64,000 nucleotides of DNA from an uncultured virus (IMG/VR IMGVR_UViG_3300000553_000007) (IMGVR_UViG_3300000553_000007); one strand, 5' to 3'. Counted from the first letter of the stretch, positions 2,833 through 63,665 are shown. Notes: generated by a model from the letters alone, not told the origin. A program made the numbers and translations.

Positions 2833-3618
2833 ATGCATTATAGTGAAGTAAAAAAATATTGCAAAAATTGTAACAGTATAGTTTTTCTTAGAAATAATAG
2901 AGATGTTCTTAAAAAGAAATTTTGTTCACGCAATTGCAATGCACAGTATTACGCAAAACAAAGAATTAAATCCGACCCTACATTTTTAGAACGATTTATA
3001 AGAGCAGGACAAACTGCAGAAGCTAATAAAAAGAAAGGAATTCATCCAAATTATATCCCCACTTACAAAATTCATAACTGTTTAATTTGCAATAAAGAAT
3101 TTAACGTTCAATTAGCTAGACATAATAAAGGATATGGAAAGTGTTGTTCTAAAAAATGTTATTATCAATATTATAAAGTAGATGATATTAAAACACAATG
3201 CATAATTTGTGGAATTGATATATTGGATAAACCGAAGAAAAATAGAAGATATTGTAGTTGTTCTTGTAGAGCTATAGATTCAATATCAAAACAAAAATTT
3301 AAAAATACTGATATAGAATTAAAACTTAAAAAATTTTTAGAACAAGAAAATGTTTCGTTTCAATTCCAACCTTTAATAAAAGATATAGTAAATGCCGACT
3401 TTTTGGTTTATCCGAACATAGTTATATTTGCGGACGGTGACTATTGGCATAGTTTACCCCACGCAATAAAACGTGATATAGAAGTAGATAAAAAATTATT
3501 AGAAAATAATTATAAAATATTGCGATTTAAAGGAAGTGAAATTAATAAAAATTTTGAAGTGGTAAAAACTAAAATAAAGGAGATTTGTCATGCCGTCCAT
3601 CAGTCAAAAACAACGTAG
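2833..3618 (+). CDS. Putative homing endonuclease: Cys-rich zinc-finger repeats plus a Vsr/DUF559-like nuclease domain
   Basis: Three CxxC...CSxxC repeats followed by TDIE...ADF...DGDYWH...D...L...ILRF. Confidence 0.7.
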   Translation: MHYSEVKKYCKNCNSIVFLRNNRDVLKKKFCSRNCNAQYYAKQRIKSDPTFLERFIRAGQTAEANKKKGIHPNYIPTYKIHNCLICNKEFNVQLARHNKGYGKCCSKKCYYQYYKVDDIKTQCIICGIDILDKPKKNRRYCSCSCRAIDSISKQKFKNTDIELKLKKFLEQENVSFQFQPLIKDIVNADFLVYPNIVIFADGDYWHSLPHAIKRDIEVDKKLLENNYKILRFKGSEINKNFEVVKTKIKEICHAVHQSKTT

Positions 3619-9098: not shown

Positions 9099-10217
9099 TT
9101 ATTTGTGATAATTCTCATACAAACTATGATATAGTTCGTTAATTTTCTCATAATCTACAGATTTTGGTAACGTAGTTGTTTTGTATGCGGTGTCTAATTT
9201 AGATTGAAATTCGGTTGCATATTCCATCAATTTATCATATGACCATCCTCCATTTTTAATATGAAGAATCTCTTCCGCATCGGGCCTTTTTACAATAACT
9301 TTATGGTCATTCAAAATTTCTAATCCCATTCTAAGCAGACGGACTAAGTGAGAACCGTGTTTGCAATCGTATTGATACTTGACTTCAAGTTCGTGTCTGG
9401 CTGGATTACGGTTCTTTTTCCAGTTAAGCCAAGATTTATATGATTCAGTTTCTTTTTTAAATTGCCGTTCACGATTAATTATATCTACTACTTCATCTTT
9501 TAAATTGTATTCAGTTGCCAATCGTTCAACAACTCCATCTCCATAAATAGATGGCCAATTGCCTTCATTTATTTCAAGATTTGAAAGAGTGTATATTAGT
9601 TCCCATATTGTAGATTTTAAATCGTCCCGTTGCATTTCATCTAACGGATATTGAGTTAAATTCCAACGTTCAACTTCTGATTTTATTAATCCAAACGCTT
9701 CTTGTATTTGTGGTGGTGTATGAGGAGGAAGACCAAAATCTTCTCGTTTTGGTTCTTGTAATTCTCCCTTCACAATCCATTTTCTATGTCTTTCTATTTT
9801 ATGTAATTGTGCCCATGCGTATCCTGAAAATGTAAACTTTGCCTTAGAAGATAGAAATAAATCTCTATTTTCCATCAAAGCTTCCATAGGACTCTTGAAC
9901 ACGAAATGGTCGGCTGGGTCCGTCCATAATACTTCGATGATGTTTGGATTGACGTTGGCCGCCAAGACCATGAACTTCTTCAAAGAATAAAGAGAAGACT
10001 CAAACTTCGGATTCTTGGGATTCTTTAAATATTCTAAAGATGTCTCAAGTTCCTTGTTATCAATCGCCTGTTCAAATTTGTGAAAAAGGTTGTTCTCGAC
10101 GTCCCTTGGGGGGATGACGATGCCCTTAACATCCACGTCAGACAGTTCATTGTTCAAACCGTAAGCCTGTGAACCGTGTAAGGTCACATAAATTGTATTT
10201 GGGACTAGCCATTTCAT
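9099..10217 (-). CDS. DNA polymerase beta-superfamily nucleotidyltransferase (RlaP/YcgL-like)
   Basis: HGSQAYGL...SDVDVKG, NPNIIEVL, FSGYA..QL, YDCKHGSHLVRLL.MG.EIL and IKNG motifs. Confidence 0.85.
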   Translation of the reverse strand: MKWLVPNTIYVTLHGSQAYGLNNELSDVDVKGIVIPPRDVENNLFHKFEQAIDNKELETSLEYLKNPKNPKFESSLYSLKKFMVLAANVNPNIIEVLWTDPADHFVFKSPMEALMENRDLFLSSKAKFTFSGYAWAQLHKIERHRKWIVKGELQEPKREDFGLPPHTPPQIQEAFGLIKSEVERWNLTQYPLDEMQRDDLKSTIWELIYTLSNLEINEGNWPSIYGDGVVERLATEYNLKDEVVDIINRERQFKKETESYKSWLNWKKNRNPARHELEVKYQYDCKHGSHLVRLLRMGLEILNDHKVIVKRPDAEEILHIKNGGWSYDKLMEYATEFQSKLDTAYKTTTLPKSVDYEKINELYHSLYENYHK

Positions 10218-55397: not shown

Positions 55398-55489
55398 TGG
55401 CGGTTAATGAGGGAATTGAACCCCCGCCGGACGCAATGCCGGATTAGTTTTCGAAACTAACGTAGCGAACCAACATCTACCTACTAACC
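55398..55489 (-). tRNA. tRNA-Ser(CGA)
   Basis: Anticodon arm TTAGT-TTCGAAA-ACTAA, long variable arm, GTTCAA T-loop, G73 and encoded CCA. Confidence 0.88.
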
Positions 55490-55493
55490 AAAA

Positions 55494-55715
55494 TTATTTA
55501 GACCAACGGTGTTTTCTGCTATGATATTCCCAACAAATGTTACAATTATTTATTGGTGGAGTTGAGCCGGTATAATCCGTATGAAGAGGACATGATTCCA
55601 TATCTAATTGAATTCTTAAAGAATCGATATTAAATGGTTTGCCATTTGGTAAGATGAACTTGGTAGTTATCTCAGGTTCTTCTTTTTTAAACCAGTTTCG
55701 TATCCAATTAAACAT
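55494..55715 (-). CDS. Small hypothetical protein between tRNAs
   Basis: 73 aa with C..H...C..C. Confidence 0.5.
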   Translation of the reverse strand: MFNWIRNWFKKEEPEITTKFILPNGKPFNIDSLRIQLDMESCPLHTDYTGSTPPINNCNICWEYHSRKHRWSK

Positions 55716-55719
55716 AAAA

Positions 55720-55813
55720 TGGCGGTTGTGATAGGATTCGAACCTACGGGCCGGCTTTCACCGAACCTCCTAATTTCCAATCAGGTGCCTTATAGCCACT
55801 CAGCCACACAACC
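55720..55813 (-). tRNA. tRNA-Ser(GGA)
   Basis: CCTGA-TTGGAAA-TTAGG, long variable arm, GCCA end. Confidence 0.92.
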
Positions 55814-55860
55814 AAAACGGTGAGTTATAATATAAATATATCAAATGATATTATAACATC

Positions 55861-55896
55861 AAAAAGAAAACACCAACCAAAAATGGAAGGTGTTTT
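55861..55896 (-). terminator. Rho-independent terminator after tRNA-Gln
   Basis: Minus strand AAAACACC...GGTGTTTT followed by a T run. Confidence 0.55.
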
Positions 55897-55903
55897 ATGA
55901 AAC

Positions 55904-55977
55904 TGGCTGGGGATGAAGGAATCGAACCTTCGTCTATCGGTTCAGAGCCGACTGTAATACCATTATACAAATCCCCA
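55904..55977 (-). tRNA. tRNA-Gln(CTG)
   Basis: TCGG-CTCTGAA-CCGA anticodon arm, U1-A72, GCCA end. Confidence 0.92.
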
Positions 55978-55988
55978 ATAAAGACAAC

Positions 55989-56162
55989 TTAAAGTTTCTT
56001 TGCATCAGTAGAGACTTCTGCCACTACTGTTTTTGCGGTTGTTGCCACTACTACTGCATCGGCCACTACTTTATTGACTACTGCGACGTGTTTACGTCCG
56101 ACCAATACGCCGACGATAAATGTTACAACACCGACAATGGATGCTACTATTACGATACTCAT
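55989..56162 (-). CDS. Small Val/Ala-rich membrane peptide (57 aa, not in the ORF track)
   Basis: MSIVIVASIVGVVTFIVGVLVGRKHVAVVNKVVADAVVVATTAKTVVAEVSTDAKKL*, with an AAGGA ribosome-binding-like site. Confidence 0.6.
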   Translation of the reverse strand: MSIVIVASIVGVVTFIVGVLVGRKHVAVVNKVVADAVVVATTAKTVVAEVSTDAKKL

Positions 56163-56252
56163 ATTTTTTCCTTTATGTTAATTGTTATTTCAACAAACCA
56201 TTGGGGTTTGTGATAATAAATATGACAATATAAGTATAAAAACTTACAAAAT

Positions 56253-56326
56253 TGGTGGAGCCGCCGAGAATCGAACTCGGGCCTTTTCATTGCGAGTGAA
56301 ACGTATTCCCACTTTACCACGGCCCC
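56253..56326 (-). tRNA. tRNA-Ala(CGC)
   Basis: TTTCA-CTCGCAA-TGAAA; G3-U70; ACCA end. Confidence 0.92.
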
Positions 56327-56375
56327 CATAAACTCCCTCACAAGAGGGAATTGTATCTTCTCATAATATAGAAGA

Positions 56376-56567
56376 CTAGATACAGAATTTTAAGGTTATC
56401 TCCTGGACCATTTTTACAACTTATCCATTGTTGAGTGGTCTTTTTACAACTTTACTCTGTTGGGCGTTTTTACAGTAGTCACTGCTACCCCTGTCAAAGA
56501 CAGGATTGTGAGCCTTGTTAGGCTTGTTTTTTAGCTAGATATTTTTATCTGCTGTTACCGTATCTAA
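56376..56567 (-). ncRNA. Unknown structured ncRNA with tandem hairpins and pseudoknots
   Basis: Terminal pairing AGATACGG/CTGTATCT, three hairpins and repeated CAAC..GTTG-TAAAAA units; no long ORF; lies between two tRNA-Ala genes. Confidence 0.55.
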
Positions 56568-56569
56568 AT

Positions 56570-56643
56570 TGGTGGAGCCAAAGGGAATCGAACCCTTATT
56601 TCAACACTGCCAGCGTCGTGTCTTACCATTGGACGATGACCCC
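56570..56643 (-). tRNA. tRNA-Ala(GGC)
   Basis: CGACG-CTGGCAG-TGTTG; G3-U70; ACCA end. Confidence 0.9.
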
Positions 56644-56647
56644 ATTT

Positions 56648-57045
56648 TGTGACGTAGCCGTAACCGCCGTTTTGTTTTATCTCTACATTTATCTCAGTAT
56701 TTCTACTGGTTCTCCGTTAAAGAGAACTGCTCCAACCTTTCCTTTACATCGGCCAACACTAGCCTTTGGAACTTTAGGATTACTGTTAATTTGTGGTACA
56801 AACGAATGTAATGAACAGGAACTATCGGACGTGTATTGGATTACTTGTCTACCTGTTTTCCCTTAAAGTCTTTCACTTTAAGTTTCCTCCGACTATTTTA
56901 TGGTTTTACCCACGTTACATTCTCCCAACATCTGCTGTACAGAGGCGAATTTCCTCTGGTAATATCTTGAACCATTGTCAAGCCTAGTTTCATCAACTTC
57001 CGATTCGAACGGACTTATTACCAGCGTAGAGTCGCTTACGTCACA
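56648..57045 (-). ncRNA. rnpB: RNase P RNA (catalytic subunit), phage-encoded
   Basis: P1 TGTGACGTA/TACGTCACA; P2 CTCTAC/GTAGAG; P3 CTGGTAATA/TATTACCAG; CR-I GAGGAAATTCGCC pairing with CR-V ACAAAACGGCGGTTAC (P4 with a bulged U); CR-IV AGATAAATG preceded by a GAAA-capped hairpin. Confidence 0.82.
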
Positions 57046-57050
57046 TCAAT

Positions 57051-57078
57051 AATATACATCTAAATTATTAAATGTCAA
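57051..57078 (-). promoter_or_regulatory. Sigma70-like promoter for the RNase P RNA (TTGACA-N16-TATATT)
   Basis: The -10 box ends 5 nt upstream of the predicted P1 5' end. Confidence 0.6.
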
Positions 57079-57090
57079 GCGTTGAAATTT

Positions 57091-57168
57091 TGGTGGTGTC
57101 TATGAGATTCGAACTCATACATTTTCACTTCTCAGGCGAACGACTCCTGCCAGTTGGTCTAAGACACC
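57091..57168 (-). tRNA. tRNA-Leu(GAG), short variable arm
   Basis: TTCGC-CTGAGAA-GTGAA; 5-nt variable loop; ACCA end. Confidence 0.85.
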
Positions 57169-57173
57169 GTAAA

Positions 57174-57251
57174 TGGTATGCGTGACAGGACTCGAACCTG
57201 TGATAAATCTCAGTGTAAATGAGACGCCGTTGCCGCTGGAGCCACACGCAC
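57174..57251 (-). tRNA. tRNA-Val(TAC)
   Basis: TCTCA-TTTACAC-TGAGA; ACCA end. Confidence 0.9.
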
Positions 57252-57259
57252 ATTAAATG

Positions 57260-57336
57260 TGGTCGGAATGCCGGGACTCGAACCCGGAAATCTCCTGGAC
57301 CCAAACCAGGCGCGATACCAATTACGCTACATTCCG
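57260..57336 (-). tRNA. tRNA-Pro(TGG)
   Basis: C1-G72; CCTGG-TTTGGGT-CCAGG; ACCA end. Confidence 0.92.
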
Positions 57337-57346
57337 ATTAAAAATT

Positions 57347-57438
57347 TGGCGGTTCCGACCAGATTCGAACTGGTGGCAGTTTTTTAGGCTGCGAGAGTTT
57401 AGCAAACTCTTGGTTTAATCCATCTCACCCACAGAACC
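57347..57438 (-). tRNA. tRNA-Ser(GCT)
   Basis: AGAGT-TTGCTAA-ACTCT; long variable arm; GCCA end. Confidence 0.9.
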
Positions 57439-57452
57439 ATAATCAATAACTA

Positions 57453-57977
57453 TTATATATCTTTAGTAATGTCAAGGTTTTTCTCAACTTTAAATCCTTG
57501 ATATATTAAGATTTCTTTACAAAGTTGTATAAAATCTTCTAAAATCATATCACCTTTAGCAAAATTTGCTTCTTTACAAGTTAATCCTAAATTATCAAAA
57601 GAACATCCCCCGCCCTTTGAAACAGGTATTATATGGTCACATTGATATGTTTTAGGTTGTAATAAATCTATTTTTCTACCACTTAAATAACAGATTGGAG
57701 TATTAATTAATTTGTCTTTAAATTCATTAGATGAAAAATTCAAAGATTTTCTTTTTTGTAAACAATGCCTATTTCCATTAACAAAACTAAAATTATCTTT
57801 TTTTCTTTTTAAAATTCCAGTAAGAGTTTTTTTATAATTTTTGACACGTAATTTACATTTGTCTTTTTGTCCATCGCCACAATGATAAGCAATGGTTCCT
57901 TTAGAGCATCCAAGAATAGATTTTATTTCATTATAGGATTTTCCCTCACTTCGTAATTTAAGTATTTCATTTTTCAT
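57453..57977 (-). CDS. HNH endonuclease with an N-terminal HTH
   Basis: ILKLRSEGKSYNEI...SKGTI HTH; CYLSG...CDHIIPVSKGG...DNL...C..AN..K. The true start is 57977, because the longer ORF runs through a tRNA. Confidence 0.85.
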   Translation of the reverse strand: MKNEILKLRSEGKSYNEIKSILGCSKGTIAYHCGDGQKDKCKLRVKNYKKTLTGILKRKKDNFSFVNGNRHCLQKRKSLNFSSNEFKDKLINTPICYLSGRKIDLLQPKTYQCDHIIPVSKGGGCSFDNLGLTCKEANFAKGDMILEDFIQLCKEILIYQGFKVEKNLDITKDI

Positions 57978-58035
57978 GAATATACATATAAACGAGTTCG
58001 AATAAATACGAATAAAAATATTCGAACTATTAAAT

Positions 58036-58128
58036 TGGCGGTTGGAGAGGGATTCGAACCCCCGGCGGTTTTTTAGGCCGCTATAGTTTTCAAGACTATC
58101 GCCATCAGCCGGACTCGGCCACCCAACC
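58036..58128 (-). tRNA. tRNA-Ser(TGA)
   Basis: ATAGT-CTTGAAA-ACTAT; long variable arm; GCCA end. Confidence 0.92.
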
Positions 58129-58137
58129 ATAAATTCT

Positions 58138-58245
58138 TTAATCAAAGCCTGTAATTTCCCAGGCATTTAATAATCCATCGTAGGATTCGGCTTCTTGTTG
58201 ACGACGTTCCTCTTCTTCGGCGTCATAATAATCATCTTCTTCCAT
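58138..58245 (-). CDS. Tiny acidic peptide (35 aa, not in the ORF track)
   Basis: MEEDDYYDAEEEERRQQEAESYDGLLNAWEITGFD*, directly after a sigma70-like promoter. Confidence 0.45.
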   Translation of the reverse strand: MEEDDYYDAEEEERRQQEAESYDGLLNAWEITGFD

Positions 58246-58253
58246 TGACAATA

Positions 58254-58281
58254 ACTATATCATCATTTATGAAATAGTCAA
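58254..58281 (-). promoter_or_regulatory. Sigma70-like promoter (TTGACT-N16-TATAGT)
   Basis: Read directly, upstream of the acidic peptide. Confidence 0.5.
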
Positions 58282-58290
58282 TAATAAATT

Positions 58291-58390
58291 ATGCAATTTG
58301 AGAAGGATTCGAACCTTCGACCAACCCAATCAAGGGTTCGGCATGGCTATCAAGGCCAATACGTTAAACCACTCCGACACCAAACTACAT
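58291..58390 (-). tRNA. Atypical tRNA-Ser(TGA)-like RNA lacking CCA
   Basis: D loop GAGTGGTTTAA, loop CTTGATA, long variable arm, T arm GAAGG-TTCGAAT-CCTTC; acceptor stem extendable to about 11 bp; no CCA. Confidence 0.55.
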
Positions 58391-58395
58391 ATTTG

Positions 58396-58803
58396 TTAAC
58401 AATCAAAAATCTGTTCGTATTTTCCAATAGTCATATGAAAACATTTTATATGACCCGATGGTGGTAATGTATATTTACTATAAATTGACATACCAAGTTC
58501 TTCTCTAATTGATTCCAATCTCTTACACCACACATTTAAAAAGAAATATCCATTTCCTTCAAGAACGTATGAGTCATACATAAACTCAACTTCTTCGCCT
58601 TCATAGTCATCCCAATATCGTATTCTTGGTGGAATTTCTAATTTAGGTCTTACGACTGTGATGTGAGCCGGCCACTTTGATTTAAATGGTCTTCTATATA
58701 ACGGTATTAACGAATAATAATCCGATAAATCTTGACCAACTTCAACCGTTACTCTAAATCCATTTTCATCGTTGTAATGAATTTTTCCTTTTCCTAAAAA
58801 CAT
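58396..58803 (-). CDS. 2H phosphoesterase-family protein
   Basis: Two HxT motifs, PAHITVV and CFHMTIG; likely start 58803. Confidence 0.7.
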   Translation of the reverse strand: MFLGKGKIHYNDENGFRVTVEVGQDLSDYYSLIPLYRRPFKSKWPAHITVVRPKLEIPPRIRYWDDYEGEEVEFMYDSYVLEGNGYFFLNVWCKRLESIREELGMSIYSKYTLPPSGHIKCFHMTIGKYEQIFDC

Positions 58804-58826
58804 TTCTGTAATATTACCTTTCAAAT

Positions 58827-58900
58827 TGGAGCCCGGTGTCAGAATCGAACTGACGTTTCTTCGTTACAAGGGAAGAGTAATGCCATTATACTAAACGGGC
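58827..58900 (-). tRNA. tRNA-Thr(TGT)
   Basis: CTTCC-CTTGTAA-CGAAG (one mismatch); GCCC start; TCCA end. Confidence 0.85.
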
Positions 58901-59202
58901 AAATTTTCACTGTCTTTTCTAGCTTTCTCGTATGATGAACCTATTTTTTTATATAAATCATTTGGATGAAACCCATCTGTATTCCATTTACCATGTGTAA
59001 TATGAAAATGTTCGGCATTCCAATGACAATCTGGACACAAGGAAATACCATTATTTAGAACATATCCACCATTTGGCATTTCGTGGCGGTCTGTAATATG
59101 ATGTGCATCTAATTTTTCTTTATTATTGCACATTCTACATTTACGACCGTCTCTTTCAAATACACCTTCACGGAATAGGTGTCTTTTTTGATATTTGTTC
59201 AT
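58891..59202 (-). CDS. Small HNH endonuclease
   Basis: VFERD..KCRMC...LDAHHI...NGISLCPDCH. Confidence 0.85.
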   Translation of the reverse strand: MNKYQKRHLFREGVFERDGRKCRMCNNKEKLDAHHITDRHEMPNGGYVLNNGISLCPDCHWNAEHFHITHGKWNTDGFHPNDLYKKIGSSYEKARKDSENLPV

Positions 59203-59467
59203 ACTTACTTTCTATTTGTTTCTTCGCTTCTTCAAATGTCACAGACTTTGGTTGTGCGTCAACTGTTGCTTGAACTTTTTTACGAGTAGCTTGTAACTTT
59301 TCATCTAGTTTGATACATTTCAATAGACGTTTTAATCCACGTTTTGAAAGAGGCATCATAGTTTGTAATTGTTCCAACGCTTGACGTTCTGTTGTCAATG
59401 GTTGATTTAATCTACCTTCTAAAGTAGGCCATTTATTTTTCATAAATGTGGTCATATTTACCAACAA
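59168..59467 (-). CDS. Hypothetical protein
   Basis: Basic ORF in an operon; start uncertain. Confidence 0.45.
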   Translation of the reverse strand: MLVNMTTFMKNKWPTLEGRLNQPLTTERQALEQLQTMMPLSKRGLKRLLKCIKLDEKLQATRKKVQATVDAQPKSVTFEEAKKQIESKYEQISKKTPIP

Positions 59468-59675
59468 ACTCGAATGTCTTTTCTATGTTGGGGAAATTTT
59501 TTAACCAACCATCAATTTTATCTTCATTATTCCCATACATTACCATTCCATTTGGTGTAATTGGCTCTTTACTACTACCATCATCACTGATGATGAACGC
59601 AGGCATTCCGTTTATATAAACTATATTTTTATATATGTCGTTTTCAAATTTGGAATTTACAATTTCACATATCAT
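59433..59675 (-). CDS. Hypothetical protein
   Basis: 80-aa ORF overlapping its neighbours. Confidence 0.5.
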   Translation of the reverse strand: MICEIVNSKFENDIYKNIVYINGMPAFIISDDGSSKEPITPNGMVMYGNNEDKIDGWLKNFPNIEKTFEFVGKYDHIYEK

Positions 59676-59884
59676 AAATTATAATTTTTCAGTAATTTAT
59701 CCAAAATAGATTTATCAATTGTTTGCGCTAAAAAATTAGCAGCAGCATCAGGGCAATAATCCCATCTATTACATGTGGGACATCTATAATGGGATGTTCT
59801 GACGGAAATGCCCATATCCCCAATTTTGGGGTCGCCGTGTTCGACGATTGTCATCTCAATATCGCACTTTTCACATTTCTTCAT
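59672..59884 (-). CDS. Small zinc-ribbon protein
   Basis: CEKC...CPTC; likely start 59884, just after a promoter. Confidence 0.55.
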   Translation of the reverse strand: MKKCEKCDIEMTIVEHGDPKIGDMGISVRTSHYRCPTCNRWDYCPDAAANFLAQTIDKSILDKLLKNYNL

Positions 59885-59889
59885 AAAAT

Positions 59890-59917
59890 ATAATAACACA
59901 TCTTGTGGATATGTCAA
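59890..59917 (-). promoter_or_regulatory. Sigma70-like promoter (TTGACA-N16-TATTAT)
   Basis: Read directly, between tRNA-Asp and the zinc-ribbon gene. Confidence 0.5.
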
Positions 59918-59928
59918 GCGTTTAAAAA

Positions 59929-60005
59929 TGGCGAGATAGACGAGACTCGAACTCGCAACTTTTCGGGCGACAGCCGAATACTCTAACCAATTGAGTTACT
60001 ACCCC
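59929..60005 (-). tRNA. tRNA-Asp(GTC)
   Basis: TTCGG-CTGTCGC-CCGAA; GCCA end. Confidence 0.92.
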
Positions 60006-60568
60006 GTTAATTGACATCCGAAATTTACTTTAAAAATTGTTCTGATGGCATCTTTACCACTCTCTTGCAATTCTCTAGTTCCGATACCGGCAAAATTTTG
60101 TGTCAACTTTGGAATTTCGCCCCAAAGACACTCAAATCCAACAATTGGCATATATCGAAACCAAGAACCTCCCATATCGTCTTGAAGAAATACAAACGTA
60201 GGTTTATCACAGTCAATTGCCATTTGAACCGCCCATCCTGTTCCTCCATCCACAGTCGATTTTGATAAAAACTTTTTCGCTATAGCGAAAACCGCATCTG
60301 AATTCTTGATTTGAAACCAATTCCTAGATAATAAATTTTTTATATAGGTTGGTTGACCTTGTGGATATTTTTTTAGAACTTTATTAGCTCTTAATACTGC
60401 TTCAAATCCTTCATTTAATTCCGGTCTTTCTAGAATCTTTCTATTCTTACCTTTTTGCGTATGACCATAAAAAGAATAAGCGATGGTTTTAACACCGTAT
60501 TTATCGCCTTCGTTTTCCCAGAACATATCAGCACCGGGACAACCACCACTATGACAAGTATAATTCAT
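59999..60568 (-). CDS. SLOG-superfamily (DprA/YspA-like) protein
   Basis: HSGGCPGAD, RN..QI.NSDAVFA, GGTGWAVQMA and AGIGTR motifs. Confidence 0.7.
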   Translation of the reverse strand: MNYTCHSGGCPGADMFWENEGDKYGVKTIAYSFYGHTQKGKNRKILERPELNEGFEAVLRANKVLKKYPQGQPTYIKNLLSRNWFQIKNSDAVFAIAKKFLSKSTVDGGTGWAVQMAIDCDKPTFVFLQDDMGGSWFRYMPIVGFECLWGEIPKLTQNFAGIGTRELQESGKDAIRTIFKVNFGCQLTG

Positions 60569-60963
60569 AAATTAAATCCTTTACCCAAAGTACAATGAAA
60601 ACATTTTAAATATCCTAATGGCGGAATTGTTATTCTACTTATTATAGACAATCCTAATTCTTTACGAATATCTTCCATTTCAACTGACCATAAATTGAAC
60701 CACCAATAATTTTTTTCATATAAAATATTATAGTCGTACACGAAATTTGCAACTTGGCCTTCTCTATTTCCCCATTTATCCCAATTAATAATTGGGTCTA
60801 TTGGGCTTACGACGGTTACGTGGGCATTCCATCTTGGTTTTAATGCTCGGTAATATTTAGGAATTAGAGAATAGTAATAATCTCCAATGGATTGTTCCAC
60901 ACTTACGGTAACTCTATCTCCATCGGATTTATCATAATGAATTATTCCACTAGACTTAAACAT
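60565..60963 (-). CDS. 2H phosphoesterase-family protein (paralog of 58396..58803)
   Basis: NAHVTVV and CFHCTLG HxT motifs; alignable end to end with its paralog. Confidence 0.7.
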   Translation of the reverse strand: MFKSSGIIHYDKSDGDRVTVSVEQSIGDYYYSLIPKYYRALKPRWNAHVTVVSPIDPIINWDKWGNREGQVANFVYDYNILYEKNYWWFNLWSVEMEDIRKELGLSIISRITIPPLGYLKCFHCTLGKGFNL

Positions 60964-60968
60964 CCCAA

Positions 60969-60996
60969 ATTATACATTACCGAATTGAGAAGTCAA
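60969..60996 (-). promoter_or_regulatory. Sigma70-like promoter (TTGACT-N16-TATAAT)
   Basis: Consensus -10 box 5 nt upstream of the 2H gene start. Confidence 0.6.
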
Positions 60997-61395
60997 GATT
61001 TAATTTCCATAACATCGTCAGAAGACCAAATAACGGTATCTTCTTCATCGTTATCCCATGTTACTTTATTAGACTCTAATTCAATTGCCAAATTTATCAA
61101 TTCTCTTTTCTGTAATTGATTCGGTTTGTGGAGAGAGTTGTTTGTGCACAATTCTTTAAGATAATTTGAATTTGTGATTCTTTGCCAACCGAGTTTCCAT
61201 AAATCTAATATATGGTCTGAGGCATCATTGAAATCGTTTTTATTTTTTGTGGCCTGCCATAATATATTACGAGCATCTGAACCGTGTGAGTATTTGATTG
61301 GAATAAAAGTTCCATTTGGCATCTGCCAAGAATATGCCCGTTTTTTATCGGATTCTAATGTCTCATTTAGTATGTCTTTTAGCTTAATCGCTCAT
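60993..61395 (-). CDS. Hypothetical protein with an IKLKDILNE leader; start apparently out of frame by +1
   Basis: The frame of 60993..61322 extends upstream as AIKLKDILNETLESDKKRAYSWQ; the ATG at 61395 is one base out of frame. Confidence 0.45.
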
Positions 61396-61432
61396 ATAAA
61401 TATAAAGTTAAAGATGATTTTACTATATAAAT

Positions 61433-61506
61433 TGGTGCATCCACCCGGAATCGAACCGAGATTAACAGGGTAAAAGCCTGCCAGCTTACCATTGACTTAT
61501 GGATGC
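61433..61506 (-). tRNA. tRNA-Lys(TTT)
   Basis: GCAGG-CTTTTAC-CCTGT; ACCA end. Confidence 0.85.
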
Positions 61507-61514
61507 GTTAAAAA

Positions 61515-61580
61515 CAAGATACCATCTTTTTTAGTTCTGCGTATTAGGCGGATTTTATTTTGATTGCGGTTGATATCTTT
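61515..61580 (-). ncRNA. Short structured element with a closing stem like that of 56376..56567
   Basis: AAGATATCA-ACCGCAA...TGGTATCTTG. Confidence 0.35.
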
Positions 61581-61583
61581 AAA

Positions 61584-61683
61584 TGGTGGAGTTTGAGGAT
61601 TTTTACCCCATGTTCTATTGTCGCCTGAACAAGGCTTACCCTACATACCCCTGCATAGGATAATACTTTCTGAACATCACTCA
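61584..61683 (-). ncRNA. CCA-ending tRNA-like RNA, atypical
   Basis: Ends ACTCCACCA; GGGG-TAAAAAT-CCTC T-arm-like hairpin; GAGT/ACTC and ATGTTC/GAACAT pairings. Confidence 0.35.
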
Positions 61684-61692
61684 ATGTACAAA

Positions 61693-61857
61693 TTACCTTA
61701 AAATCTTTAATACTAACCGAGCTTTCTTTAACTTTTGTTCGGTTTTAGTGTATTCTTCACCACTAACATTCTTCTTATAGTTTTCACTATTCAAACGTTT
61801 TTCAAGAAAGGCGATATAATCTTCCTCCTGTTTGATTCGGTTTTCTTTTGTATTCAT
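61693..61857 (-). CDS. Small helical protein
   Basis: MNTKENRIKQEE...LEKRLNSENYKKN; the true start is 61857, because the longer ORF overlaps a tRNA. Confidence 0.55.
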   Translation of the reverse strand: MNTKENRIKQEEDYIAFLEKRLNSENYKKNVSGEEYTKTEQKLKKARLVLKILR

Positions 61858-61861
61858 AAAT

Positions 61862-61940
61862 TGGTGTCTGTGGAGGGATTCGAACCCACACTTTACAAGT
61901 TTTAAGTTTGTTGCCATGCTTCCAGTTGGGCTACACAGAC
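61862..61940 (-). tRNA. tRNA-Leu(TAA), short variable arm
   Basis: ACAAA-CTTAAAA-CTTGT; ACCA end. Confidence 0.82.
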
Positions 61941-62003
61941 GTATAAATAAGCAGAACTGAAATATAAGTTCATTTTAAGTTGTTCCATTTATATTTATTT
62001 TAT

Positions 62004-62477
62004 ATGAAACACAAATATGAAAAAGAACAATTTTCGGAATGCGTAAAAAAATCTGAAAGTATGGGGCATTTATTAGAACTTTTAGGTATTATAAAAGCCG
62101 GTGGAAATTATGCTACAATGAAACGTAGAATATTAACGTGGAATATAGACACTTCCCATTGGGAACTAACAAAACGAAAACGTCAGGGATATAAAAATCG
62201 TGAAAGAGATAATTCCATTCCATTGTATAAAATTTTAATAGAAAATTCATCATATACTCACACTTATTGTCTTAAAAATAAATTAATTAAAGAAAAGGTG
62301 TTTGAGTTGAAATGTTATAGATGTGAATTAACTAATTGGCTGGATAGGTCAATTCCTTTAGAATTAGAACATATAAACGGAAATCGAGCCGATAATAGAA
62401 TTGAAAATCTTACATTATTGTGTCCAAATTGTCATGCTTTAACTAATACTTACCGTGGAAAAAATAAACGAAAGTAA
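62004..62477 (+). CDS. HNH endonuclease, antisense to the tRNA cluster
   Basis: CYRC...LELEHINGNRADNRIENLTLLCPNCHA.T. Confidence 0.88.
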   Translation: MKHKYEKEQFSECVKKSESMGHLLELLGIIKAGGNYATMKRRILTWNIDTSHWELTKRKRQGYKNRERDNSIPLYKILIENSSYTHTYCLKNKLIKEKVFELKCYRCELTNWLDRSIPLELEHINGNRADNRIENLTLLCPNCHALTNTYRGKNKRK

Positions 62478-62479
62478 AT

Positions 62480-62556
62480 TGGTAGTGGTAAAGAGAGTCG
62501 AACTCTTAAAATCATTATTTTGAGTAATAAATGTCTTCCAATTGCATCATACCACC
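62480..62556 (-). tRNA. tRNA-Leu(CAA), short variable arm
   Basis: TATTA-CTCAAAA-TAATG; ACCA end. Confidence 0.8.
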
Positions 62557-62564
62557 ATAAAATT

Positions 62565-62642
62565 TGGTAACATCTAAGGGATTCGAACCCATACATTTCT
62601 GTTTCTGAGACAGACGACTCCTACCGGTTGGTCTAAGATGTC
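62565..62642 (-). tRNA. tRNA-Leu(CAG), short variable arm
   Basis: TCTGT-CTCAGAA-ACAGA; ACCA end. Confidence 0.85.
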
Positions 62643-62705
62643 ATTAAATTGTGTCTTCTTCTCCCCTAACGCGGGGCTACCGACCGAAATGGTCGCCGAC
62701 TGAAT

Positions 62706-62781
62706 TGGGGTGAGTAGGGGGAATCGAACCCGCCATTGGAAGCTTCACAGGCCTCGACATTACCACTATGCTATACACACC
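62706..62781 (-). tRNA. tRNA-His(GTG)
   Basis: GAGGC-CTGTGAA-GCTTC; encoded G-1 opposite C73; CCA end. Confidence 0.9.
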
Positions 62782-62788
62782 ATAAAAA

Positions 62789-62943
62789 TTATTTGTCATA
62801 TGGCTAATGTGTGGAATGGAAAACCACTGATGTTACAATTAGACCACATTGACGGCAATCACCAAAATCACGTTATTTCTAATCTACGATTTATTTGTCC
62901 AAATTGTCATAGTCAGACAGAAACATTTTCTGGAAAAAATAAA
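62789..62943 (+). pseudogene. Truncated HNH endonuclease remnant
   Basis: WNGKPLMLQLDHIDGNHQNH..SNLRFICPNCHSQT resembles the C-terminal half of 62004..62477; there is no room for an N-terminus between the tRNAs. Confidence 0.65.
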
Positions 62944-62944
62944 A

Positions 62945-63023
62945 TGGCATCGGTGGAGGGAATCGAACCCATCATATCTTCTCATTGAGAATGAGACGTG
63001 TTAACCAATTACACTACACCGAC
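62945..63023 (-). tRNA. tRNA-Glu(CTC)
   Basis: TCTCA-TTCTCAA-TGAGA; GCCA end. Confidence 0.85.
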
Positions 63024-63030
63024 ATATTCA

Positions 63031-63134
63031 CAGACACGTCAGGTCACACGATATTCACTATATTTTTCCGTTATTCATGTGATTGGCAAAACCACCAGGC
63101 GCCATTTAGTCCACCCTTGTCAGGGATGTGTCTA
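63031..63134 (-). ncRNA. Candidate structured ncRNA
   Basis: Terminal AGACAC/GTGTCT stem with internal CCCT-GACA-AGGG and CACATG/CGTGTG pairings. Confidence 0.3.
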
Positions 63135-63665
63135 TGAAATTGTTGATACATACATGCCCATTACAATTGCCGCACACGAGCCGACATTTAATGAACGAAC
63201 TGTACCTCTAGCAGGAATAGTAACGATTCTTTCCGAATTGTCAAGCATGTATTCTGATAATCCCAATTGTTCTTCACCGACAACAAACACCGGCGGAAAC
63301 TGTAGACCGTTGAACGGATTATCATAGATTGAAACTGTCTTATTTTCATACTTTGGAACATTATTTTCAATACATACTAATGAATAATTTCCATTAATTG
63401 TTGAAATGAATTCTTCTTCGGTACGAATGAAATTGATAGGAATATAATGGTGCGTTCCAACGGTGGAACGTCGGTCATACTGCTTACTACCACCAATATA
63501 GATGGCTTCCTTGAAGCCAAAAAAGTTTGCCGAACGAATTACATTACCCAAATTGAAATCCCCTGACAAATGCGTCATACCAAAAGCAGCAGTGTGCGCA
63601 TGGTCACAATAGTTTTCCTTGATTTCTTCCGGTGATAGGGACTTTAAATAATCGTGAACATTCAT
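63132..63665 (-). CDS. SpoU/TrmH-family RNA 2'-O-methyltransferase
   Basis: FNLGNVIRSA..FG, VVGEEQLGLS and IP..G.VRSLNV..AAI SPOUT motifs. Confidence 0.9.
   Translation of the reverse strand: MNVHDYLKSLSPEEIKENYCDHAHTAAFGMTHLSGDFNLGNVIRSANFFGFKEAIYIGGSKQYDRRSTVGTHHYIPINFIRTEEEFISTINGNYSLVCIENNVPKYENKTVSIYDNPFNGLQFPPVFVVGEEQLGLSEYMLDNSERIVTIPARGTVRSLNVGSCAAIVMGMYVSTIS

Follow-up and report, generated by a model that had tools for sequence, protein, structure and literature searches.

We analysed 64,000 nucleotides (nt) of DNA from an uncultured virus (IMG/VR record IMGVR_UViG_3300000553_000007), here called the window, and in particular an element at positions 56648-57045 of its minus strand that is a candidate for a phage-encoded RNase P RNA. 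RNase P trims the 5' ends of new tRNAs, and its RNA is regarded as a strictly cellular housekeeping ribozyme. A Pfam scan of 70 open reading frames (ORFs) identifies the source of the window as an uncultured, freshwater T4-like myovirus, with matches to the Gp23 capsid protein, the T4-type portal and large terminase, the gp25 baseplate wedge, the gp21-type prohead protease and PhoH. The window contains 19 tRNA genes, all on the minus strand (55398-63023), with HNH endonuclease ORFs in between; the CCA end is encoded by 18 of the 19, and four of the genes are spaced just 5-10 nt apart at 57091-57438. The element lies in a 447-nt gap between the genes for tRNA-Leu(gag) and tRNA-Ala(ggc). No ORF longer than 32 amino acids (aa) was found on its own strand within this gap, in keeping with an earlier note on this DNA, made from the sequence alone, which had described a non-coding stretch of about 400 nt.

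The same note had placed the helices P1, P2 and P3 and the conserved regions (CR) CR-I, CR-IV and CR-V on the minus strand, and all were recovered when the coordinates were recomputed (Table 1). The core motifs and helices of the element all follow the order of class A RNase P RNA, and the catalytic domain (C-domain) is kept whole, comprising P1-P5, J5/15, P15-P17, the GGU of the loop L15, P6, CR-I, CR-IV and CR-V. The L15 GGU had been reported as missing, mistakenly, being part of an AGGT (Table 1). An unconstrained minimum-free-energy fold of the element recovers P1, P2 and P3, with a z-score of -2.88 and none of 100 shuffled sequences folding as well. The P3 stem closes a 51-nt loop insertion in the window (56956-57024) that is absent from most relatives. 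The assignment of GGUUGGAGCA to CR-III plus the P5 3' strand was considered and ruled out, the relatives showing this stretch to be L15 and the P15 3' strand.

The TTGACA promoter proposed for the element corresponds to a sigma-70-like site at 57078-57051 that is a consensus match only, in a region with 41 such sites where 31 are expected. Its predicted start falls approximately on the first base of P1, and a TTGACA box is also present upstream of the element in most relatives. In most relatives, a conserved AGTTCTTTGAGATTT stretch follows the TTGACA/TATAGT boxes and precedes P1 by about 15-30 nt (as at L117 5860-5880); it has no counterpart in the window, whose promoter abuts P1.

Table 1. 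Features of the RNase P RNA-like element and its immediate flanks, listed 5' to 3' along the minus strand.
Feature	Position	Strand	Remarks
tRNA-Leu(gag)	57091-57168	-	directly upstream of element
Promoter-like site TTGACA, 16 nt, TATATT	57051-57078	-	11/12 sigma-70-like consensus matches
P1 5' strand TGTGACGTAAGCG	57033-57045	-	12 pairs
P1 core strands TGTGACGTA with TACGTCACA	57045-57037 with 56656-56648	-	from sequence
P2 CTCTAC with GTAGAG	57031-57026 with 56686-56681	-	6 pairs
P3 CTGGTAATA with TATTACCAG	57024-57016 with 56964-56956	-	9-base-pair (bp) stem
CR-I / J3-4 and P4 5' strand GAGGAAATTCGCC	56956-56944	-	bulged U included
P5 5' strand CTGT	56939-56942	-	pairs with ACAG 56786-56783
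P6 pseudoknot 5' strand AGCA	56933-56936	-	pairs with TGTT 56758-56755 in P17 loop
Conserved strand GATG(A)TTGGGAG	56922-56932	-	in place of 5' entry to specificity domain
Variable insert, 118 nt	56804-56921	-	at specificity-domain position
Conserved strand (C)GTT..ACCACAAATTA	56787-56803	-	runs into P5 3' strand
P5 3' strand ACAG and J5/15 (TAA)	56780-56786	-	from alignment A1
P15 TCCTAA/TTGGAG, P16 TTCC/GGAA, P17 hairpin GGCTAGTGTTGGCC	56730-56779	-	from alignments
L15 AGGT (GGU)	56738-56735	-	from sequence and alignments
Hairpin A GTTCTC TTTAACG GAGAAC	56709-56727	-	6 pairs
Hairpin B CAGTA GAAA TACTG, P18-like	56695-56708	-	ends directly before CR-IV
CR-IV AGATAAATG	56694-56686	-	runs into P2 3' strand GTAGAG (56681-56694 in all)
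J2/4 and CR-V ATAAAACAAAAC, P4 3' strand GGCGGTT, then AC	56660-56680	-	from alignments
CR-V ACAAAACGGCGGTTAC	56675-56660	-	from sequence
P1 3' strand CGGCTACGTCACA	56648-56660	-	4 nt before first base of tRNA-Ala(ggc)
tRNA-Ala(ggc)	56570-56643	-	directly downstream of element

Relatives of the element were collected through PhoH, which is encoded 4 kb away, yielding 80 viral loci with PhoH identities of 66-100%. When these were searched with the window element using nhmmer, 25 of the 80 matched, each upstream of PhoH and in the orientation of PhoH; among these 25 homologous loci, 24 have tRNA-Ala as the first tRNA downstream of the element, and 18 have tRNA-Leu(gag) upstream of it. The element is present in 21 of the 28 loci for which at least 8 kb of upstream sequence is available. 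A search with a family motif returned 42 viral contigs, 26 of them new and all confirmed by profile, and the family includes at least 53 viral contigs in total, counting a third contig with the window's own variant. Identical copies of the window element occur in record G001 and in L027; early pattern scans had returned such identical copies along with unrelated or canonical RNase P RNAs and nothing else. A profile built from 15 relatives, with the window row left out, has a single match in the 64-kb window, at 57045-56648 on the minus strand (E 2.4e-52). More than a chance occurrence, the element is a genuine structured RNA that has been conserved. The smallest members of the family are about 200-215 nt long, and the core spans about 215-280 positions.

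A search for the family motif in genomes from 185,579 prokaryote species gave a single occurrence, in a 20-kb contig (L234) of a metagenome-assembled genome (MAG). This GC-rich partial copy (340-760) extends from CR-I to ACCAC and has no clear CR-IV or CR-V; it follows two tRNA genes and precedes an insertion sequence (IS)-type ORF, and the same MAG carries, on another contig, a canonical RNA that scores 165.7 bits with the class A model of Rfam, RF00010. Within the phage family, L133 still has a remnant second set of 5' strands (2104-2135) upstream of the working P1, an extra hairpin is found between the 3' strands of P4 and P1 in L139 (1800-1830), L201 and L225, and insertions of about 90 nt are present in the last hairpin in the L196/L216/L219 group and in L228.

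Conservation of the structure was assessed in two alignments. A1 consists of 16 distinct sequences aligned with MAFFT (483 columns), and a structure of 62 pairs was drawn from it by eye, including P1-P6, P15-P17 and two hairpins before CR-IV, with P4 and P6 as pseudoknots. Because the structure itself was derived from A1, the count was repeated on A2, which contains the window row and 18 distinct sequences from contigs not in A1; all duplicates were omitted, as were three loci that the profile covered in part. Mean column identity is 43-44% across the 16 (A1) and 18 (A2) distinct sequences. In A1, 88.5% of the cells are paired, compared with 36-41% when the 3' partners are slid by 1-3 columns, and in A2, 91.5% are paired, compared with 30-45%. 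Changes on both sides of a pair are observed for 43 of the 62 pairs in A1 and for 41 in A2.

The earlier note had proposed covariation among homologues as a check, and the pairing of P1 to P4 is indeed conserved in both alignments. P1 is paired in 83.8% (A1) and 84.6% (A2) of cells, with both-side changes in 10 and 9 of its 12 pairs, respectively; P2 is paired in 99% and 100%, with five of the six pairs compensatory in each alignment; and the outer four pairs of P3 are formed in 100% in both, with compensatory changes. All seven pairs of P4 are formed throughout (100%; 16/16 and 19/19), with both-side changes in four and three of them. The compensated departure of the window P4 from the E. coli sequence (CGCC/GGCG) is real and belongs to a wider series of compensated variants, namely, CGCG/CGCG, CGAU/AUCG, CGCA/UGCG, CGCU/AGCG, CAAG/CUUG, CGGA/UCCG and CGAG/CUCG; at one P4 position, the window has an A-U pair (56950 with 56663) where the other 33 sequences (15 in A1, 18 in A2) have G-C.

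The remaining helices behave similarly. P5 is paired in 91% (A1) and 93% (A2) of cells, with compensatory changes, and its four inner pairs are formed in 16/16 rows of A1 via seven different strand sequences. P6, with the variants AGCA/UGCU, AACA/UGUU, AACU/GGUU and AACU/AGUU, covaries and is paired in 98.4% and 100%. The values for P15, 76% and 80%, are lowered by a one-column register shift that MAFFT introduced in one subgroup; those for P16 are 73% and 88%, and those for P17, 89% and 91%. Hairpin A is paired in 80% and 92%, with compensatory changes in all six pairs; hairpins A and B both covary, and both are absent in L125, L126, L199 and L213. The loop of hairpin B is GAAA in the window and GAAA or GCAA in several members of the family, and its assignment to P18 is by position only.

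The single-stranded motifs of the core are conserved to a similar extent. The CR-I columns GAGGAA.UUC, whose two U include the bulged U, are invariant in A1 and A2. Also invariant are the two A of J5/15, AGA..AAUG in CR-IV, C..AA....GG.UA in CR-V and the P4 3' strand, and the GG of L15, the U of which is invariant in A1 and conserved in at least 90% in A2. In the E. coli and Thermotoga enzymes, these positions form the active site, touch the base that precedes the cleavage site and base-pair with the 3' CCA of the tRNA.

The connection to class A was made through the relatives. Of 16 related records analysed with Infernal, three match RF00010, exactly on the homologues L117 (45.3 bits), L125 (42.3 bits) and L127 (44.1 bits), over model positions 1-367 and with E values of 2e-14 to 3e-13. 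A separate cmscan of the 212-nt L125 element against this model gave 33.8 bits (E 3e-9); the L125 alignment places P1/P2, P3, P5, P15-P16-P17 with GGGUA, CR-I, CR-IV and CR-V, with about 140 model positions of the specificity domain (S-domain) replaced by 28 nt and P18 deleted. The family profile, in turn, reaches the class A RNA that the viral contig L105 (385 kb) carries, itself scoring 86 bits in Rfam, with an E value of 1.4e-5, through the common UGGGAG and ACCACAA strands. The element probably descends from a bacterial class A RNase P RNA. The central claim of the earlier note, a phage-encoded, divergent RNase P RNA within the tRNA cluster, holds up, with less diverged family members matching RF00010 over the whole model and helices that covary. 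The misfit to types A and B that it had perceived is genuine for the specificity domain, which is replaced, but not for P15-P17 and P6, which fit type A with the support of covariation.

The S-domain normally reads the T-loop and D-loop of the tRNA. In the phage family, just two conserved strands, GAUGAUUGGGAG and CGUUAAUACCACAAAUUA, remain between the 5' and 3' strands of P5, around an insert of 8-134 nt among the 16 members of A1 (118 nt in the window). The GATG(A)TTGGGAG strand is nearly invariant in A1 and A2, and ACCACA is invariant in the facing strand; a P7-like pairing of the two (56922-56932 with 56787-56803) is 91% paired, with too little variation for covariation. Neither the class A profile nor the Rfam search revealed any likeness of the window's 118-nt insert to class A S-domains. 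This insert is common to L197 (437-556, E 1.7e-19) and L210 (439-556, E 8e-8), and in the three sequences (window, L197 and L210), 25 pairs are predicted for the module, six of them with compensatory change; it contains conserved GAGUGAAAG and AAUAAUCC(A/G)AUACACG stretches. Because the window insert recurs in two phages with RNase P cores of other subtypes, these sequences suggest that insert modules are exchanged between phages. In L137, a 52-aa ORF (3347-3505, plus strand) with two Cys pairs (CPKC ... CPDC), resembling a small zinc ribbon, is located at the S-domain position inside the RNA gene.

Most probably, the phage encodes at 56648-57045 (minus strand) a remodelled RNase P RNA of its own that would process tRNAs with the host RnpA protein; the analysis demonstrates homology, conservation, structure and synteny, and we infer catalysis, protein partner and substrates. 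RnpA (PF00825) was not found among the 70 window ORFs or in nine related records, one of which is rated 100% complete by CheckV, which accords with the earlier failure to see RnpA in the window and with the suggested borrowing of the host protein. Given that no phage RnpA was found, the RNA would use host RnpA or act alone. Transcription could proceed from the element's own promoter or together with the tRNA cluster, and the 3' end of the RNA might be released by a cut at the 5' end of tRNA-Ala, 4 nt downstream; since P1 ends 4 nt before this tRNA, such a cut would also trim the 3' end of the ribozyme. The RNA would then bind host RnpA and remove the 5' leaders from the densely packed, CCA-encoding pre-tRNAs of the phage. 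In this scheme, the L15 GGU would pair with the 3' CCA, and the reading of the tRNA elbow, usually a task of the S-domain, would be lost or accomplished otherwise. CCA being the partner of the L15 GGU, the GGU of the element matches the CCA encoded by the tRNA genes. Activity of an RNA devoid of the S-domain is plausible given two precedents: according to the accessible text of PMC5839562, the E. coli C-domain alone cleaves substrates, depending on a P6-like pairing and dispensing with P18, and according to that of PMC3579882, RNase P RNAs of the archaeal type T have lost most of the S-domain.

Several results weigh against this interpretation. No Rfam RNase P model matches the window copy at the gathering threshold in a search of the whole window, nor is there an RNase P match at E<=10 on 701 nt or on the 403-nt element alone, or at E<=1 on the identical copy L027. 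With nhmmer, a profile made from 13 viral-contig class A RNAs that Rfam confirms produced no hit on the element, blastn of the element against GenBank phages found no match, and no Rfam model of any kind, the class B model RF00011, RNaseP-T and the other RNase P models included, matches it at E<=10. The Infernal search with Rfam RNase P models that the earlier note had suggested was therefore negative for the window copy and positive for three homologues, and the case for RNase P identity rests on the relatives because the window copy has no Rfam match. Among the 16 related records, just three matched RF00010, most of the other 13 being uninformative negatives because a loose first look passed no candidate to Infernal. 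The scores of the relatives, 34-45 bits, are far under the RF00010 gathering score of 100 bits, which was reached neither by the window copy nor by the homologues scored. Furthermore, 7 of the 28 loci with sufficient upstream sequence have no copy within 10 kb upstream, so that the gene may be dispensable, and the S-domain is missing or unrecognisable in the phage RNA, which makes efficiency and substrate choice uncertain. Finally, although 0 of 500 shuffles reached the observed values in A1 and 0 of 500 in A2, this control overstates significance because the structure was drawn by eye and the MAFFT alignments contain related sequences; the slid control and the out-of-sample A2 are better guides than shuffles, which ignore relatedness.

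The RNA could be a non-catalytic look-alike that acts as a sponge, soaking up host RnpA or the 3' ends of pre-tRNAs and so diverting tRNA maturation from the host. The loss of the S-domain, the departure of the window CR-I from the class A consensus and the failure to find a phage RnpA are all compatible with such a role, and catalysis is deduced from sequence. However, the columns that are invariant across 16 and 19 sequences coincide with the class A consensus of CR-I, CR-IV and CR-V, and the bulged U and the P4 geometry are kept as well; together, these features make up the active site, and a sponge could do without some of them. P6, reported in the accessible text of PMC5839562 to be necessary for catalysis by the C-domain, is also kept, with covariation, and we consider a sponge unlikely. 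We likewise give little credence, slightly less in fact, to an active RNase P-derived ribozyme whose main substrate is something else, phage mRNA or non-tRNA sites in the cluster transcript, read via the insert. Such a function would fit an insert that varies between 8 and 134 nt among phages at the S-domain position, that in the window is a conserved structured module found in two other phages, and that in one relative is replaced in position by a small ORF; yet the element keeps its place between a pair of tRNA genes in almost every locus, its L15 GGU and the encoded CCA ends suit tRNA substrates, and members with an insert of 8-11 nt retain everything else.

Covariation and the Infernal matches together disfavour two further possibilities. 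That the element is a decaying, non-functional remnant of a host rnpB acquired with tRNA genes might be suspected from the lack of an Rfam hit for the window copy, the lost S-domain, the 7 of 28 related loci without the element and the partial copy beside an IS-like ORF in one MAG contig. Against this, compensatory changes maintain the helices among phages whose PhoH proteins are 66-94% identical, the single-stranded motifs of the core are invariant, and pairing would not stay at 91% out of sample in a pseudogene; nor do the alignments represent one recent clone, as they hold 16 and 18 distinct sequences with 43-44% mean column identity. Decay is, accordingly, very improbable. A structured RNA unrelated to RNase P, similar to it by chance or convergence, would explain why class A models and profiles miss the window copy, but would have to be reconciled with full-length RF00010 matches in three homologues (E about 1e-13), with an Infernal alignment that places every C-domain element in L125, and with five motifs and nine helices, including two pseudoknots, arranged in the same order, and is hardly credible.

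Other parts of the window are also related to RNA. The tRNA cluster is split by three HNH endonuclease ORFs, a SpoU-type RNA methylase is encoded at its border, and an RlaP-type RNA-repair nucleotidyltransferase is encoded elsewhere in the window; these ORFs (57453-58166, minus strand; 58891-59202, minus; 61980-62477, plus; 63132-63665, minus; and 9099-10217, minus) together point to a broader set of genes for RNA maintenance. Between tRNA-Ala(cgc) and tRNA-Ala(ggc), another gap of 243 nt (56327-56569, minus strand) is non-coding as well and has no Rfam match.

A literature search, for which subscription journals were mostly outside coverage, turned up no account of an RNase P RNA encoded by a phage, and in the accessible part of a 2024 Journal of Biological Chemistry review, 'phage-encoded' refers to tRNAs. 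Beyond the identity of the window element, we lean slightly towards the broader view that freshwater and soil T4-like phages carry an unannotated family of working RNase P ribozymes that lack the canonical S-domain, use host RnpA and are tuned to their own tRNA cluster, and that in the phage of the window, the new 118-nt module in place of the lost domain may read the substrate differently. If this is true, natural RNase P RNAs of the bacterial type would reach their smallest size in the members of about 200-215 nt. A conserved viral RNase P RNA would extend the translation-related functions of phages past tRNAs and tRNA enzymes to catalytic RNA, and the family would constitute a natural experiment on how little RNase P RNA suffices, its members retaining the catalytic domain, P6 and the loop that binds CCA while dropping or swapping the domain that reads the tRNA elbow. 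The changing inserts, a structured module in some phages and a zinc-ribbon ORF in one, would offer a way into the study of recognition-module exchange on a ribozyme scaffold. As the window copy has no Rfam hit, standard annotation misses such genes, and mapping them would call for a dedicated covariance model.

Compared with class A RNase P RNA (RF00010), the phage family has the same P1-P2-P3 arrangement, with CR-IV running into the P2 3' strand, the same CR-I/CR-V pseudoknot P4 with the bulged U, P5 followed by J5/15 with two A, and P15-P16-P17 with GGU in L15 and the P6 pseudoknot. It differs in the replacement of the specificity domain P7-P14, to which CR-II and CR-III belong, in having two hairpins at the P18 position (none in the smallest members), and in being virus-encoded with no RnpA gene found nearby; CR-I reads GAGGAAGUUC in the relatives, GAGGAAAUUC in the window and GAGGAAAGUC in the class A consensus. 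Type B RNase P RNA lacks P6, P16 and P17; the phage family, unlike class B (RF00011), has all three. Class A RNase P RNAs that Rfam recognises adjoin tRNA genes on large contigs (52-446 kb) classed as viral but possibly cellular (L052/L104, L085, L096, L108, L106, L008/L032, L105 (=L053) and L090 (=L025)), and their RF00010 scores range between 67 and 288 bits; in L052, one tRNA gene is found immediately on either side of the RNA. These near-canonical RNAs resemble the window element in their proximity to tRNA genes and, in L105, in the UGGGAG/ACCACAA strands, but unlike it, they mostly keep the full S-domain and pass the Rfam threshold.

The closest parallels to the architecture of the phage family come from RNAs reduced by engineering or by evolution. 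The engineered E. coli C-domain RNA (Eco CP RPR) is, like the phage family, a type A catalytic domain with the S-domain removed. The accessible text of PMC5839562 describes it as requiring a P6-like pairing but not P18, and the phage family likewise keeps a covarying P6 and drops the hairpins at the P18 position in some members. Eco CP RPR is, however, a laboratory construct of reduced efficiency; the phage RNAs are natural and conserved, with linker strands and inserts of their own. The archaeal type T RNAs of Thermoproteaceae (RNaseP-T) likewise keep the catalytic domain and have lost most of the S-domain and, to judge from the accessible text of PMC3579882, were similarly missed by the existing Rfam model of their group. 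In type T, the C-domain is archaeal, the proteins are archaeal, the RNA is the sole RNase P RNA of the cell, and P2 has 3 bp according to the same text; the phage family, in contrast, has a bacterial type A C-domain and a P2 of 6-7 bp (six pairs in the 62-pair structure).

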